A program made the position numbers and the translations under genes. From an uncultured bacterium (GTDB lineage: Bacteria > JAGRBM01 > JAHCIT01), in contig CAZMGV010000008.1 of assembly GCA_964565925.1 (NCBI GenBank), positions 2,664-66,663 of the forward strand: a DNA stretch of 64,000 nucleotides. The letters run 5' to 3'. Below the pieces are notes generated by a model. That model saw only the letters and a list, made by a program, of their open reading frames with translations. It had not been told where the DNA came from and did not search any database. Shown here in pieces: positions 16,611 to 21,165 of the stretch (the stretch's first letter is position 1; each line of letters opens with the position of its first letter).

Positions 16611-16650
16611 AGCGGCCGCTCCCCGGAAGGTGGGCGGCCGTTTTTTTTGT
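16611..16650 (+). terminator. rho-independent terminator
   Basis: GC stem cggccgc...gcggccg followed by TTTTTTTTG immediately after ORF 15656-16573. Confidence 0.7.
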
Positions 16651-16757
16651 TTGGGCCCGCCGGCCTGTGCCCAGTCTTGTTCCACGAAGCTTTAGCGAAG
16701 GGGAAAGCCGAAGGACGGAGGGGTAAGTCTCAACGGAGGAGGGTCAGGTAAATACTG

Positions 16758-17219
16758 TCATGGTATAGTTTTCGTGACGAAATATATCGCACAAACGATG
16801 CCTAAAAGCATCATACCGAATGCGCCTACTGCCGCACAGTAGCCGTGCCTAGCCCGCGACTCTATGAATTTCTTAACTTCGATCGCACGGGACGCATCAA
16901 TTTTTGCTAAGCGCGGGAATATGACGTAGCCACATAAAAATAAAGAAACCATCCATGAGAAACAGGGGATCCATACCCAATGTCCTGGAACTACTTGGCC
17001 GGGATCCTTACAATCACGATATAGCTTCAATAACCCGAGATAGACCGGCTGCATCCCTGCACTAATCGTAGCAATATGCTTCGCGGCATCCGTCAGGCTA
17101 CCGATGCTCCCCGAAATCAAATCCTCTCCCATTTTTTTATACGCCGGACTCATCTTTTCAAAACGCTCAAGCGCTTCTTGAACACTATCGGGCGCGCGTT
17201 CGCCATTGATCACAGCCAT
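16758..17219 (-). CDS. small two-TM membrane protein (island gene D)
   Basis: Two C-terminal hydrophobic helices (WVWIPCFSWMVSLFLCGYVIF; YCAAVGAFGMMLLGIVCAIYFV); 20-nt gap to upstream gene. Confidence 0.5.
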   Translation of the reverse strand: MAVINGERAPDSVQEALERFEKMSPAYKKMGEDLISGSIGSLTDAAKHIATISAGMQPVYLGLLKLYRDCKDPGQVVPGHWVWIPCFSWMVSLFLCGYVIFPRLAKIDASRAIEVKKFIESRARHGYCAAVGAFGMMLLGIVCAIYFVTKTIP

Positions 17220-17238
17220 CTCAGCGACCCCAAATCAC

Positions 17239-17451
17239 CTAAAATAGAAAGGTTACCTTGTTAGCTTTTCCACACTCTGAGCATATATCATACCGATTCT
17301 CAGCTGTCATAGGCGCGCGCACTTCCATTTTCATAATGGAATCCTTCTCCGCGGATAACATTGCTTCGACATCCTGGATCGAATACGTTTGGCTGTATAT
17401 GGAAGTATTTTCTTTCTTACAATTGAAACATGTATACTTTACCATTTTCAC
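17239..17451 (-). CDS. small zinc-ribbon protein (island gene C)
   Basis: CFNC...CSEC paired CxxC motifs in 70 aa; 31-nt gap to upstream ATPase gene. Confidence 0.5.
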   Translation of the reverse strand: MKMVKYTCFNCKKENTSIYSQTYSIQDVEAMLSAEKDSIMKMEVRAPMTAENRYDICSECGKANKVTFLF

Positions 17452-17481
17452 GAGACACCTCCCGGATATTCACAACTCATT

Positions 17482-19092
17482 TCATCCTGACAAATACTCA
17501 TAGACAGCTTCTCTAACCGAATTTTTTATCGCTCGGGATCTATGAGGCCCAACGTACTTTACTTTCTGAAGCTTCTCATCAGATGCTCTAAGCACTTGCT
17601 CTAGAGTAAGCAGATTAAGCTCCTTAAGTTTTACTTTTTGCCATTCCGTGACATCCAATAGCTCGATAGACTTAGAATATGCACTCTTAAGAATATCTGT
17701 AACATTAATGTCTGGATACAATTCTTTTTCAGGAGGCAAAGACTTGAATGATTCATGATTCATTCCGTATTCTGTCATAAGTTTAATTGACAGATTTTTT
17801 GCAAATTCAATCAATCTAATTCCTTTGATATCCATTACTTTCGACATCACGATTCCCAAATGCACCGCATAACGGGAGCCAATCTCCGCTCGTGTTGCCT
17901 TAATCCCAGTCGCATGCTCGCGAATGATCCCCGTATAAGATAAAAGTCGGAATGCGTGCCTGACGGCTTCAGGTGCATCACGGTGCAGCCAGATAAAGCA
18001 CGACGTTTTCTTATCGGATTTTAAGTACGCTTCATTTTTTTGATATAACTCGTTCAATACGTTGCCTTCGACAAAATTGCGGCCCCAATCTATTAAAGGT
18101 TTATGCCCAGTATAACTCTCAACTAACATGGAATGTTCGGACCATATGTCATCTCGGTAATACTCTCGGATAACCCGCCTCACATTATCTCCGTTTAGCT
18201 TCTTCGCTCTAAGAATCGTTTTAAAAAGTAGTCGTGGATTTCCATCAGAGGCATAAGCGAGTTCCGAAAAGTGCTCCCTATTTTCTTCAATTTGTTTAAT
18301 AAGCTGTAGGTCCCCCTGCTTTACTATCATCTCCTCCATATTCTTAATGTAATCTTCACTTAATACATCTCTATTAACATTTAAGAATGTAGCATCATGA
18401 GTAGGCTCAAATGTATCTCCGTAATTAGTGACTCCAGGGTATACGGCCGCATTACAAGTCATAAATGGACTTCGTAAATCTCTAAACAACGTAAAAAATT
18501 GTCTTTGTTGCTCTGGTTTTAAGATATGTGCGGCTTCATCAAAAAATACACAAAAGCGAGATATTCCAAAGCCGATACATATATCTTCAACAGCTTCTTT
18601 AAATTGATCTACACTCGGTAATTTCGCTATATCGACTTTTACATCTGGGTGTTCCCAAGATTGCTCATACGCTTGGACAATCTTTGCGATATCGACTTCG
18701 TCTTTGGAATATCTGATTGATGGCGATGGAGTGAGCGAAAACGCCGAACTATCCGTAAAACCATATCTTCTCATACTTCTAATTATTGATTGCCATAATT
18801 TCCCAAGCATCCAGTGCTGGAATTGCATCTGATCATTGGTCTGTATAAGTGTGCCCTTGACAAAACTAATATATATCGGGAGTACTTTGTTATTGGCGAA
18901 ATTGGCTGAAAGTTCTTGAATTGCAACTTTCAATAAAAATGATTTTCCAACGCCTCTACTGCCCACTACAATTGTCGGAGCTTTGGATTTCAGGGAGTCG
19001 ATGATCCGACGGTCTTGTTCAGATTCGACGAAATACTGAATTATATCTTCGTCTTTTATATCTTCCGTACGGAATATTAGTGGATCACTCAT
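17482..19092 (-). CDS. P-loop NTPase (AAA+/STAND-like) with C-terminal helix-hairpin-helix (RNAP alpha-CTD-like) domain (island gene B)
   Basis: Walker A VVGSRGVGKS, Walker B FCVFFDEAAH; C-terminus LTLEQVLRASDEKLQKVKYVGPHRSRAIKNSVREAV resembles alpha-CTD HhH; start at ATG 19092 with AAGGGA RBS (longer ORF to 19143 possible). Confidence 0.7.
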   Translation of the reverse strand: MSDPLIFRTEDIKDEDIIQYFVESEQDRRIIDSLKSKAPTIVVGSRGVGKSFLLKVAIQELSANFANNKVLPIYISFVKGTLIQTNDQMQFQHWMLGKLWQSIIRSMRRYGFTDSSAFSLTPSPSIRYSKDEVDIAKIVQAYEQSWEHPDVKVDIAKLPSVDQFKEAVEDICIGFGISRFCVFFDEAAHILKPEQQRQFFTLFRDLRSPFMTCNAAVYPGVTNYGDTFEPTHDATFLNVNRDVLSEDYIKNMEEMIVKQGDLQLIKQIEENREHFSELAYASDGNPRLLFKTILRAKKLNGDNVRRVIREYYRDDIWSEHSMLVESYTGHKPLIDWGRNFVEGNVLNELYQKNEAYLKSDKKTSCFIWLHRDAPEAVRHAFRLLSYTGIIREHATGIKATRAEIGSRYAVHLGIVMSKVMDIKGIRLIEFAKNLSIKLMTEYGMNHESFKSLPPEKELYPDINVTDILKSAYSKSIELLDVTEWQKVKLKELNLLTLEQVLRASDEKLQKVKYVGPHRSRAIKNSVREAVYEYLSG

Positions 19093-19096
19093 GGAA

Positions 19097-19837
19097 TTAT
19101 CCCTTACTATAATACTGTCTGAATATCGGAATACTCGAAACATTATCTTGGAATACCGGCTCTAGCAGTGCTTTATCTTCAGCATTTAAACCGGCCAGAT
19201 ACCTTGAAAATAACCCGATCTGGACGATAAAGAATACGCTATCTGCTAAGGTTAACCACTCTCGAAATACCGGTTCATTATATTCGATATCGGCCTTCAA
19301 AAAATCGGTTCGGGAGTAATTCCCGTGCACGTATTCTGAACAGGATCGATATACTTTTGCACAATGTTCTGAATAGATCGATGAATCTGTCTCTAATCCG
19401 GCGCAATATAACTTACAGTAAGAGGCGGAGAATACACCGTTGTCCTTGTTGGTCACTTCTGACCACTGCAAATCATATTTACCGGCTTTCCAGGCTCTAA
19501 AGTGATAATCATGCATCGAAAAATATATGACACCAATTGAGGCTTCCAAAAATTGGCGCAATTCAAATATTGCTTGTCGATATCCTCCAGTAGTCCCTTC
19601 ATATAGGGAGCGACTGAACCCCCAACAGCAATAGTTGAATAGTTCGACCTCCGGAGTTTCCTGAATAATATTTCGCCAAATCTCTAAATCGGCGCGCTTT
19701 GAATGGATTGCTGCCAGACGACCGGCGTGGCTAGATTGCAGCGCTAACGCCGAATTGCTTTGAACCTTCTGGATTAAGCGTGTGTATTCGCTTGTAAGCG
19801 CCGTCACCGCGATAGCTGGCTTTGAAATATCAGACAT
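19097..19837 (-). CDS. hypothetical protein (island gene A), Cys-rich, possible Rx6H (HEPN-like) motif
   Basis: 246 aa from ATG 19837 (TTG at 19849 also possible); coding-like periodicity; first gene of the island operon; RSCSEYVH motif. Confidence 0.5.
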   Translation of the reverse strand: MSDISKPAIAVTALTSEYTRLIQKVQSNSALALQSSHAGRLAAIHSKRADLEIWRNIIQETPEVELFNYCCWGFSRSLYEGTTGGYRQAIFELRQFLEASIGVIYFSMHDYHFRAWKAGKYDLQWSEVTNKDNGVFSASYCKLYCAGLETDSSIYSEHCAKVYRSCSEYVHGNYSRTDFLKADIEYNEPVFREWLTLADSVFFIVQIGLFSRYLAGLNAEDKALLEPVFQDNVSSIPIFRQYYSKG

Positions 19838-20099
19838 GTACGGTTCCAATCGTCTTTGATATCACAAAATATATACCAACTAGTAAAAGTGTTCAAAAAA
19901 ATAGTAGTAGGCGCCATCCTTATTCACAGGCTCACCACGAACGGTGCCGCTCTGAAAATGCACCTTCCGGTGCGGCTTTCCCCCGAAATTCCCGCCAGTT
20001 ACCAACTGTGACACTCCGTGACACACACGTCTGATAGGGTGCTTTGCAGGTAAGGGGGCATATGGGCCCCGCCATCACAAGTCTGCCGCTTCCATCCCT

Positions 20100-20189
20100 G
20101 CGACCCCGAGGGCGGGGTCGCGGTCCCTTCCGGAGGAAGGGACTTTCGGGAGCCCTCTTCCCATGGAAGAGGGTCCGGCTGAAAGCCGG
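20100..20189. repeat. cluster of four contiguous GC-rich stem-loops
   Basis: gcgacccc-gagggc-ggggtcgc (20100-20121); tcccttcc-gga-ggaaggga (20124-20142); ccctcttcc-cat-ggaagaggg (20153-20173); ccggct-gaa-agccgg (20175-20189). Confidence 0.6.
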
Positions 20190-20205
20190 GGGAGATGGCG
20201 CAGGG

Positions 20206-21165
20206 ATGGAGAAGGAGGTCCTTTTGATGCTTCGAGATCCCGATCTGCCGCACTACCAGCCGAGCGCGACCATCAACTGCCTGGTGCAGGCGATGCGAAC
20301 GCCTGACCCGATTGTCGCCCGGAATCTGTTTCTGGAGGCCCGGGCGCGGGTCCTTCAGGGGGCGGTCTATTTAGGCGCCTGGACGAAGAACGACCGGGTC
20401 GCCTGCGAGAGCCACAAGCTCACCCTGCGAGAAACGAACCGGCTCTACCACGACTACGACCGGATCGCGTTCGAGGCGCAGCGGCTGGCCGGCTCCGAAG
20501 GCCGAGCGGCGGCGGCAGCGCACGCCGACCTGCACAAGGGCCGCCATAACCCGGTCACGGCGAACCAGGAGGACTACCTCCCGCCGCTCCAGGGTCCGGA
20601 GGAAGCCACGCCTGAACAGCGGGACGAAGCGGCCTCCGTTCTGGAGTTCCAGAACCTCGAAGCCGAGCGCGAAACCCTCGACTGCATCAGCCGGTTCTTT
20701 AAGGACCTAAACACATTGGAAATTTCTCCGCAGCTCCGCAACCGCCCGGAAAAACTGGAGAATCTGGCGAAGGAACTTGTGGACGGAATCCCGCCGGAGG
20801 TGCTTGATGGGGTGGCTGATTCTTTCGCCGACATGCATCCGTTGAACTTAGGAACGGTGAGGGGTGGAGACATTCCGCACCCCCACCCGGCGGCGCCATA
20901 TCCCACCGGAGATGCCACCGGAGACGCCGCCGGGTCTCCCCCGTCGAGGGGGAGAGACTCCGCCCGGCTGACTACCCCGGGTCCATTCAGCCCCGCGAGT
21001 CTGTCCCCCCAATTCGGGGGGACCGCGAAGGCGAAGCCGGAGCAAGGGGGTCTGCGGGACGGGGGGACCGCGAGCCGCGTTTTACCGGAGGCGGGCAAGG
21101 AGGTTGAGCAGCCGGAGGTGACACTGCCCGGTCCCCCATCAGGTCACCCTCCCCTCCGGTTTTGA
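20206..21165 (+). CDS. hypothetical protein with Pro/Gly-rich C-terminal tail
   Basis: ORF from MEKEVLLMLRD; N-terminal part coding-like, C-terminal low complexity; no motif; could be spurious. Confidence 0.3.
   Translation: MEKEVLLMLRDPDLPHYQPSATINCLVQAMRTPDPIVARNLFLEARARVLQGAVYLGAWTKNDRVACESHKLTLRETNRLYHDYDRIAFEAQRLAGSEGRAAAAAHADLHKGRHNPVTANQEDYLPPLQGPEEATPEQRDEAASVLEFQNLEAERETLDCISRFFKDLNTLEISPQLRNRPEKLENLAKELVDGIPPEVLDGVADSFADMHPLNLGTVRGGDIPHPHPAAPYPTGDATGDAAGSPPSRGRDSARLTTPGPFSPASLSPQFGGTAKAKPEQGGLRDGGTASRVLPEAGKEVEQPEVTLPGPPSGHPPLRF

Follow-up and report, generated by a model that had tools for sequence, protein, structure and literature searches.

The transmembrane (TM) effectors of Pycsar and CBASS, such as PycTM and CBASS 2TM, are small helical membrane-spanning modules found in defence loci, and they are thought to kill by membrane disruption. 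In lambda RexAB and Kiwa KwaAB, one integral membrane protein is encoded together with a soluble partner, with the soluble partner acting as the sensor and the membrane protein as the executor. A small CxxC...CxxC module forms the N-terminal domain of MqsA, which is coupled to an RNase, and NINJ1 is a eukaryotic membrane-rupture protein. Here we analysed two small genes, C and D, in a 64,000-nt stretch of DNA from an uncultured bacterium (the window). By analogy, the C-D pair resembles RexAB/Kiwa, the Pycsar/CBASS TM effectors and the MqsA-type antitoxins in its logic, without belonging to any of these groups. It represents a rare, unannotated family that is absent from Pfam, NCBIfam, PADLOC and PHROGs.

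Genes C and D constitute the 3' end of a foreign island of 3.2 kb, in which they follow gene A and the ATPase gene B:

~16,750-19,950 (3.2 kb), low-GC block, the foreign island, with a GC of ~0.39-0.43 against ~0.64 for the genome
19868-19896, minus strand, sigma-70-like promoter from a consensus scan, 20-48 nt ahead of the start of gene A
19097-19849, minus strand, gene A, 250 aa
17482-19092, minus strand, gene B, 536 aa counted from M18
17456-17463, minus strand, strong Shine-Dalgarno of gene C (GGGAGGTG) in its upstream sequence
17239-17451, minus strand, gene C, 70 aa (68 aa from ATG)
16758-17219, minus strand, gene D, 153 aa

Both small open reading frames (ORFs) lie on the minus strand exactly where the initial annotation had put them, adjacent to each other at the end of the island. 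The gaps are 30 nt between B and C and 19 nt between C and D, and the stop codon of gene A overlaps the ribosome-binding site of gene B. The GC3 values of A, B, C and D are 0.43, 0.36, 0.46 and 0.49, respectively, compared to 0.86-0.91 for four host genes; therefore all four genes are recent foreign DNA. The sole promoter-like site that the scan placed ahead of the operon is that just upstream of A. Other consensus matches on the minus strand lie within A (19472-19549) and over the A/B junction (19096-19123), and nothing resembling a promoter or terminator was detected between B, C and D. As the number of sites is not above shuffle expectation, this promoter evidence is weak.

No tRNA gene was found near the island, no Rfam family reached its gathering score, and neither convincing flanking direct repeats nor an integrase accompanies the island in the window. 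Two metagenome scans gave no match to an empty insertion site or to the same species. The island is bracketed by two perfect inverted matches, one of 10 nt (16623-16632 / 19961-19970, CCGGAAGGTG/CACCTTCCGG) and the other of 11 nt (16700-16710 / 19973-19983, GGGGAAAGCCG/CGGCTTTCCCC). The two are not colinear and therefore do not form a single long inverted repeat; they may be coincidental, or REP-like elements of the host where the island inserted. Immediately to the right of the island, the GC-rich intergenic DNA contains a sub-threshold Rfam match to the whalefall-1 sRNA (20090-20145, minus strand; 24.8 bits, E 0.004, with a gathering score of 37), which overlaps a 12-nt perfect inverted repeat (20091-20102 / 20199-20210).

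Gene C starts at either a GTG (17451) or an ATG (17445), and encodes a small soluble, presumably cytosolic protein that we regard as a putative zinc ribbon. Its two CxxC motifs, at residues 8-11 and 57-60, agree with the CxxC...CxxC arrangement read in the initial annotation; they display the hallmark of a zinc ribbon, two Cys knuckles separated by a spacer, and provide four potential metal ligands (C8/C11 and C57/C60) that may bind zinc. All curated zinc-ribbon or treble-clef models in Pfam and NCBIfam remain below threshold: the best Pfam match is zf_Tbcl_2 (19.5 bits, cut-off 27), and TIGR04272 gives an E of 0.015 (15 bits, cut-off 36). Among 5.8 billion clusters, the only significant sequence homologue of C is an identical copy. 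No HTH or other DNA-binding domain was seen.

Taking at least two segments of ~19 residues with a Kyte-Doolittle score of at least 1.6 as the mark of TM helices, D possesses two, with peaks of 1.84 at residues 82-100 and 2.32 at residues 130-148 over 19 residues, and this pattern is kept in all six homologues. The initial annotation described D as a two-helix membrane protein; the two strong helices bear this out, but there is a third, weaker and conserved one at residues ~49-67 with a score of 1.05. This segment is more hydrophobic in the homologues (1.4-1.8; 1.05-1.77 when D is included). Two TM helices are a minimum, and three are probably closer to the truth. An N-terminal amphipathic helix (residues ~11-47) precedes the hydrophobic helices at residues ~48-66 (weak), 82-100 and 130-148. 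An AlphaFold2 (AF2) model based on an alignment of seven sequences, with a pLDDT of 73, likewise has three long helices (residues 11-70, 83-100 and 112-151). A topology with the N-terminus inside, three TM helices and the C-terminus outside would place 13 Lys/Arg residues inside and 3 outside, and we infer that it agrees better with the positive-inside rule.

An HMM built from the six distant homologues, with D left out, scores D at 90.9 bits, compared to 14.6 bits for the best of 2000 shuffles of D that preserve its hydrophobic blocks. Thus D is a genuine gene, and its homology is not due to composition. Shuffling of the region yields a stop-free stretch of 153 codons or more in 0.95% of cases. 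The Shine-Dalgarno ahead of D is weak. Neither D nor its homologues matched a family of Pfam, NCBIfam, PADLOC or PHROGs above threshold; no PHROGs match to the D family was better than an E of 0.02, and tblastn gave no match in phages or plasmids. Against BFVD, the predicted model of D hit one viral protein of unknown function, S5VYM5, with an E of 4.9e-4. NINJ1 (PDB 9bia) ranked third by Foldseek, with a probability of 0.97 and TM-scores of 0.46/0.62 at a non-significant E of 0.4, and in both proteins a TM hairpin comes after an amphipathic N-terminal helix. The fold searches with D were uninformative.

Compared to the TM effectors of Pycsar and CBASS, D lacks a nucleotide-binding domain and a nearby cyclase gene, and has instead an N-terminal cytosolic helix and a zinc-ribbon partner. 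Three D-family members each weakly match a different PycTM model of PADLOC (E 0.037, 0.057 and 0.2); all these matches are sub-threshold and confined to the hydrophobic segments. D itself has no significant match to any PADLOC model, including those of PycTM, CBASS 2TM, Kiwa and Zorya. RexB and KwaA, unlike D, span the membrane four times and have partners far larger than C, which has only 70 residues; no sequence or family match links RexAB or Kiwa to C-D. Similar to the MqsA N-terminal domain, C appears as a small CxxC...CxxC module beside a coupled, putatively toxic partner. Unlike MqsA, it lacks an HTH or DNA-binding domain, and its partner is a membrane protein instead of an RNase; no similarity between C and MqsA was detected. 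Finally, the PF24389 ATPase (gene B) and its 250-residue partner (gene A) share the operon-like block and the foreign island with C-D, whereas C-D is absent from 80 of 80 A-B loci elsewhere.

An HMMER scan covering all 1.84 billion cluster representatives showed that the D family comprises seven clusters, distributed over bacteria and Methanothrix. The six credible distant homologues (144-217 aa) align with D over nearly its full length at 22-30% identity, with E values of 7e-5 to 7e-4 by phmmer against the whole library of 1.84 billion and of 1e-6 to 1e-12 by pairwise BLASTP. A further candidate, the 1966-residue repeat protein P0123 (E 9e-7 to residues 4-57 of D), was rejected as a repeat-inflated spurious match. 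Word-indexed searches with D and C gave no match other than the identical locus in re-assemblies of the same samples, and none of the 228 matches of the D-family alignment pattern on viral contigs was confirmed. The two archaeal D homologues have an extra C-terminal β-rich domain of ~70 residues, which is predicted to be outside the cell. The surroundings of the D homologues are as follows:

L082, C-like gene of 84 aa (CxxC...CP), ending 2 nt before the D homologue
L083, C-like gene of 94 aa (CPxC...CP), 4-nt overlap with the D homologue in reversed order (D first)
L083:968-1744(+), 258-aa TM/coiled-coil protein, 99 nt downstream of the D homologue
L084, C-like gene of 61 aa (CxxC...CPxC), 8-nt overlap with the D homologue, on a short contig
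L085, no C-like ORF found, Y1_Tnp upstream of the D homologue
L085:1184-1876(+), gene with an FGE-sulfatase domain, 17 nt downstream of the D homologue
L086-89, Methanothrix sp., Cys-rich N-terminus in frame with an mcrG paralogue, upstream of the D homologue
L090-93, Methanothrix soehngenii, C-like gene of 52 aa (CPxC...CPxxxH), 28 nt upstream of the D homologue
L090:6662-8038(+), clostripain-family C11 peptidase, 8 nt downstream of the D homologue

A small Cys-knuckle ORF on the same strand is coupled to the D homologue in five of six independent lineages, by overlaps or by gaps of at most 28 nt; in this count the two Methanothrix groups, L086-89 and L090-93, are taken as one, the former having no clear C-like gene. 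With the window and its 19-nt gap included, the C-like ORFs that abut the D family have 52-94 residues, and the partners elsewhere combine CxxC with CP(xx)C/H, each with at least four potential ligands. The motif C..C.{15,70}C(P|..C) is found in just 33 of the 4760 small ORFs of 45-110 residues (0.7%), a base rate at which a Cys-knuckle neighbour in five of six lineages is far beyond chance. The C-like proteins are not significantly similar to one another in sequence (leave-one-out HMM E 0.45-29, rank 8-40 of 10544 ORFs), so the pairing rests on position and motif; we claim a conserved pairing and not homology. In M. soehngenii the D cluster is present on 420 contigs and the 52-residue partner on 379, both annotated as 'hypothetical'. 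Altogether, these data support a functional pairing of C and D, which is the part of the initial annotation that holds.

The pair of L082 is flanked by opposite-strand genes on both sides and is therefore a stand-alone unit. Neighbours of the D family include TmtA/Tiamat (4e-102), TIR+SLFN, an M48/U49-like peptidase with a SEC-C motif, a DRT4/6-type reverse transcriptase (1e-155), ParE/RHH, IS605/IS200-like genes and an Rce1-like protease, and recognised defence or toxin-antitoxin genes lie within a few kb in four of seven contexts. The presence of C-D among defence genes elsewhere makes the logic of a membrane effector and its partner plausible. In three to four lineages a further gene is tightly spaced with the pair, encoding the C11 peptidase, the FGE-sulfatase-domain protein or the TM/coiled-coil protein, a place taken in the window by A-B; this variable third gene leaves room for C-D to work with varied partners, A-B here included. 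In Methanothrix sp., the mcrG paralogue (L086:4870-5952(+), Pfam E 3.6e-105) lies between the DRT4/6-type reverse transcriptase and the D homologue, and its frame runs upstream without a stop, adding a Cys-rich N-terminus of ~100 residues that resembles the C-like zinc knuckles.

The neighbouring A-B genes have a distribution of their own. Gene B is a full-length ORC/Cdc6-like AAA+ ATPase of PF24389 (49.8 bits against a cut-off of 27); both Walker A (GSRGVGKS) and Walker B (DE at 185-186) are intact and among the invariant columns, and the C-terminal tail is HhH/RpoA-αCTD-like, with weak RpoA/DisA matches. Its homologues form at least 1778 clusters of ~50% identity, with hardly any variation in length (536-537 residues), in hosts such as Pseudomonas, Enterobacter, Aeromonas, cyanobacteria, Firmicutes and Methanosarcina. 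Comparison of 80 genomic loci with B homologues (L002-L081) revealed an A homologue upstream of B in 78, and the remaining two are truncated by the end of the contig. Protein A can be aligned from end to end and carries a near-invariant motif, Y167-R168-E169-x-S171-E172-x-x-H175-G176-N177 (YRECSExVHGN), in which H175 is invariant and R168 is present in at least 90% of 46 sequences.

HEPN RNases are recognised by a conserved R-x4-6-H in an all-α domain. The motif of A reads as a HEPN-like R-x6-H, and it is on this motif that we call A HEPN-like; the predicted secondary structure is all-α. A single-sequence AF2 model reached a pLDDT of 42, too low for fold comparison. Four of 46 A homologues have weak DUF5677 matches; no significant family or HEPN match was found for A, and a profile search of PDB sequences returned nothing meaningful. 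The A-B genes are usually lower in GC than their flanks, rare on plasmids, and absent from phages and from PADLOC 2.0. The literature on PF24389, DUF5677 and ORC-CDC6 defence gave no description of an A-B or a C-D module.

Clustering of the genes within 2.5 kb downstream of B over the 80 loci revealed no recurrent partner. The largest group, of five members, consists of convergent tyrosine integrases, and HNH, GmrSD/HEC-05 and aspartyl protease genes are found at other loci. Tyrosine integrases (Phage_integrase with an Arm or SAM-like N-terminal domain) converge on and abut the ATPase stop at L047:7603-8790(-), L073:7653-9152(-), L054 and L056, an arrangement suggestive of A-B as terminal cargo of integrative elements. 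In a Bacteroidetes MAG, a 210-residue protein with two hydrophobic helices, unrelated to D, is encoded 69 nt after the ATPase (L043:7671-8303(+)) and is followed by a 112-residue protein with one TM helix, neither having a Pfam or PADLOC match; it is a second, non-homologous membrane protein downstream of B. We conclude that A-B is a self-contained and horizontally mobile two-gene module, which looks self-sufficient, with the motif of protein A as its own candidate effector.

The initial annotation expected homologues of C and D to co-occur with the ATPase. BLASTP of all ORFs at E≤10 detected neither in any of the 80 A-B loci, and the D-family HMM found no member at E≤10 in ~1.09 Mb of fetched sequence that includes all of them. 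Conversely, neither A-B nor another PF24389 ATPase lies near the D-family genes of the six other lineages (L082-L093). C-D is not a regular component of the A-B system, and by the measure that the annotation itself had set, its assignment of the pair to the ATPase falls. C and D form a conserved, tightly coupled pair that has evolved independently of A-B and recurs in defence and mobile contexts. C-D is likely to be a cassette in its own right and not a part of the ATPase system; as only six other lineages are known, the generalisation is thin.

If C were nevertheless the sensor and D the membrane effector of A-B, the island would be a single four-gene defence operon. The common strand, the short gaps, the foreign composition of all four genes and the absence of a detected internal promoter or terminator are in keeping with such an operon, and a family that often has a tight and variable third gene could plug into different systems. 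The comparative data point the other way: C or D accompanies A-B in none of the 80 loci, the flank after B is heterogeneous (integrases, HNH, GmrSD, aspartyl protease), A-B is missing from all six other D-family lineages, the two families differ greatly in size (at least 1778 clusters of B homologues against seven of D), and A-B carries a conserved candidate effector motif of its own. We rate such a four-gene system as improbable. To the same low degree, C-D might serve a non-conflict membrane function, for example as a small anchor or regulator for varied enzymes, its adjacency to A-B being due to co-transfer only. The pair seems core in M. soehngenii (~400 contigs), with the C11 peptidase at 8 nt, the FGE-sulfatase-domain protein of L085 lies at 17 nt, and no defence-database model was matched; yet the defence or toxin-antitoxin genes in four of seven contexts argue against such a function, as does the position of the pair here, next to a candidate defence module in a low-GC mini-island of recent acquisition.

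A toxin-antitoxin or addiction cassette, with D as the membrane toxin and C as the zinc-ribbon antitoxin, would stabilise islands without direct phage sensing. We hold it unlikely, though the least so among these alternatives. Small and tightly coupled genes, usually with the small soluble one first, a patchy and very sparse spread over bacteria and archaea, neighbours such as ParE/RHH, IS605/IS200-like genes and integrative contexts, and the stand-alone pair of L082 all suit it. On the other hand, L083 has the two genes in the opposite order, typical membrane toxins are a third as long as D, C shows no DNA-binding domain for autoregulation, and the pair with its downstream C11 peptidase is conserved across a whole Methanothrix species. 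That C or D, or both, are chance non-coding ORFs has a negligible probability. C has no significant sequence homologue, and the Shine-Dalgarno of D is weak; against this stand the robust homology of D, an ORF-length shuffle p of ~0.01, the strong Shine-Dalgarno of C and its conserved positional analogue in four other lineages. Moreover, in Logan assemblies from this organism both ORFs had been picked up by independent gene callers, in contrast to the initial annotation, which thought them short enough to be missed by automated annotation.

We propose that C-D is an autonomous and portable two-gene cassette, composed of the cytosolic zinc ribbon C and the membrane protein D of ~150 residues, which would be translationally coupled to C. 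A-B and C-D may have been packed together in the donor and moved as one low-GC block of 3.2 kb, and here C-D is probably read from the promoter of A and co-transcribed with A-B. In the cell, C might contact the cytosolic part of D, namely the N-terminal helix or the K/R-rich loop of residues 103-127, and either hold D inactive or relay a trigger. Once released or activated, D would oligomerise and compromise the membrane, in a unit that rides in defence islands. An abortive-infection-like or toxin-antitoxin-like role would fit this proposal. Taken as a whole, an autonomous cassette with a membrane-acting mechanism is somewhat better than an even bet, and membrane damage by D in particular is a tentative and rather doubtful part of it. 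Zinc binding, the topology of D and the contact between C and D are likewise put forward as predictions.

Some members fit the proposed cassette less well: L085 has no C-like ORF, and in L086-89 the Cys-rich N-terminus is fused to the mcrG paralogue. The species-wide presence in Methanothrix could also indicate a non-defence role. In a more speculative picture, which we consider the least probable save for chance ORFs, C-D would be an ancient two-component membrane module common to bacteria and archaea, with a zinc-ribbon trigger and a NINJ1-like three-helix rupturing protein, serving as a portable executioner or anchor beside diverse conflict effectors. The recruiting effectors would then be the HEPN-like/ORC-Cdc6 ATPase here, the caspase-fold C11 protease in Methanothrix and the FGE-sulfatase-domain protein elsewhere.

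A-B and C-D seem to be two separate modules that were joined and transferred in a single block, a caution that tight operon-like spacing in a freshly acquired island does not prove one system. The function of C-D is a predicted one and its family is tiny, and A-B is arguably the more important object in the island: with >1700 homologue clusters at ~50% identity from Pseudomonas to Methanosarcina, this uncharacterised and very widespread module is probably the more valuable follow-up target. If C-D is a self-contained membrane-acting cassette, it would add a very small two-gene candidate of ~0.7 kb to the catalogue of defence and addiction systems, one that occurs in bacteria as well as in a major genus of methanogens.
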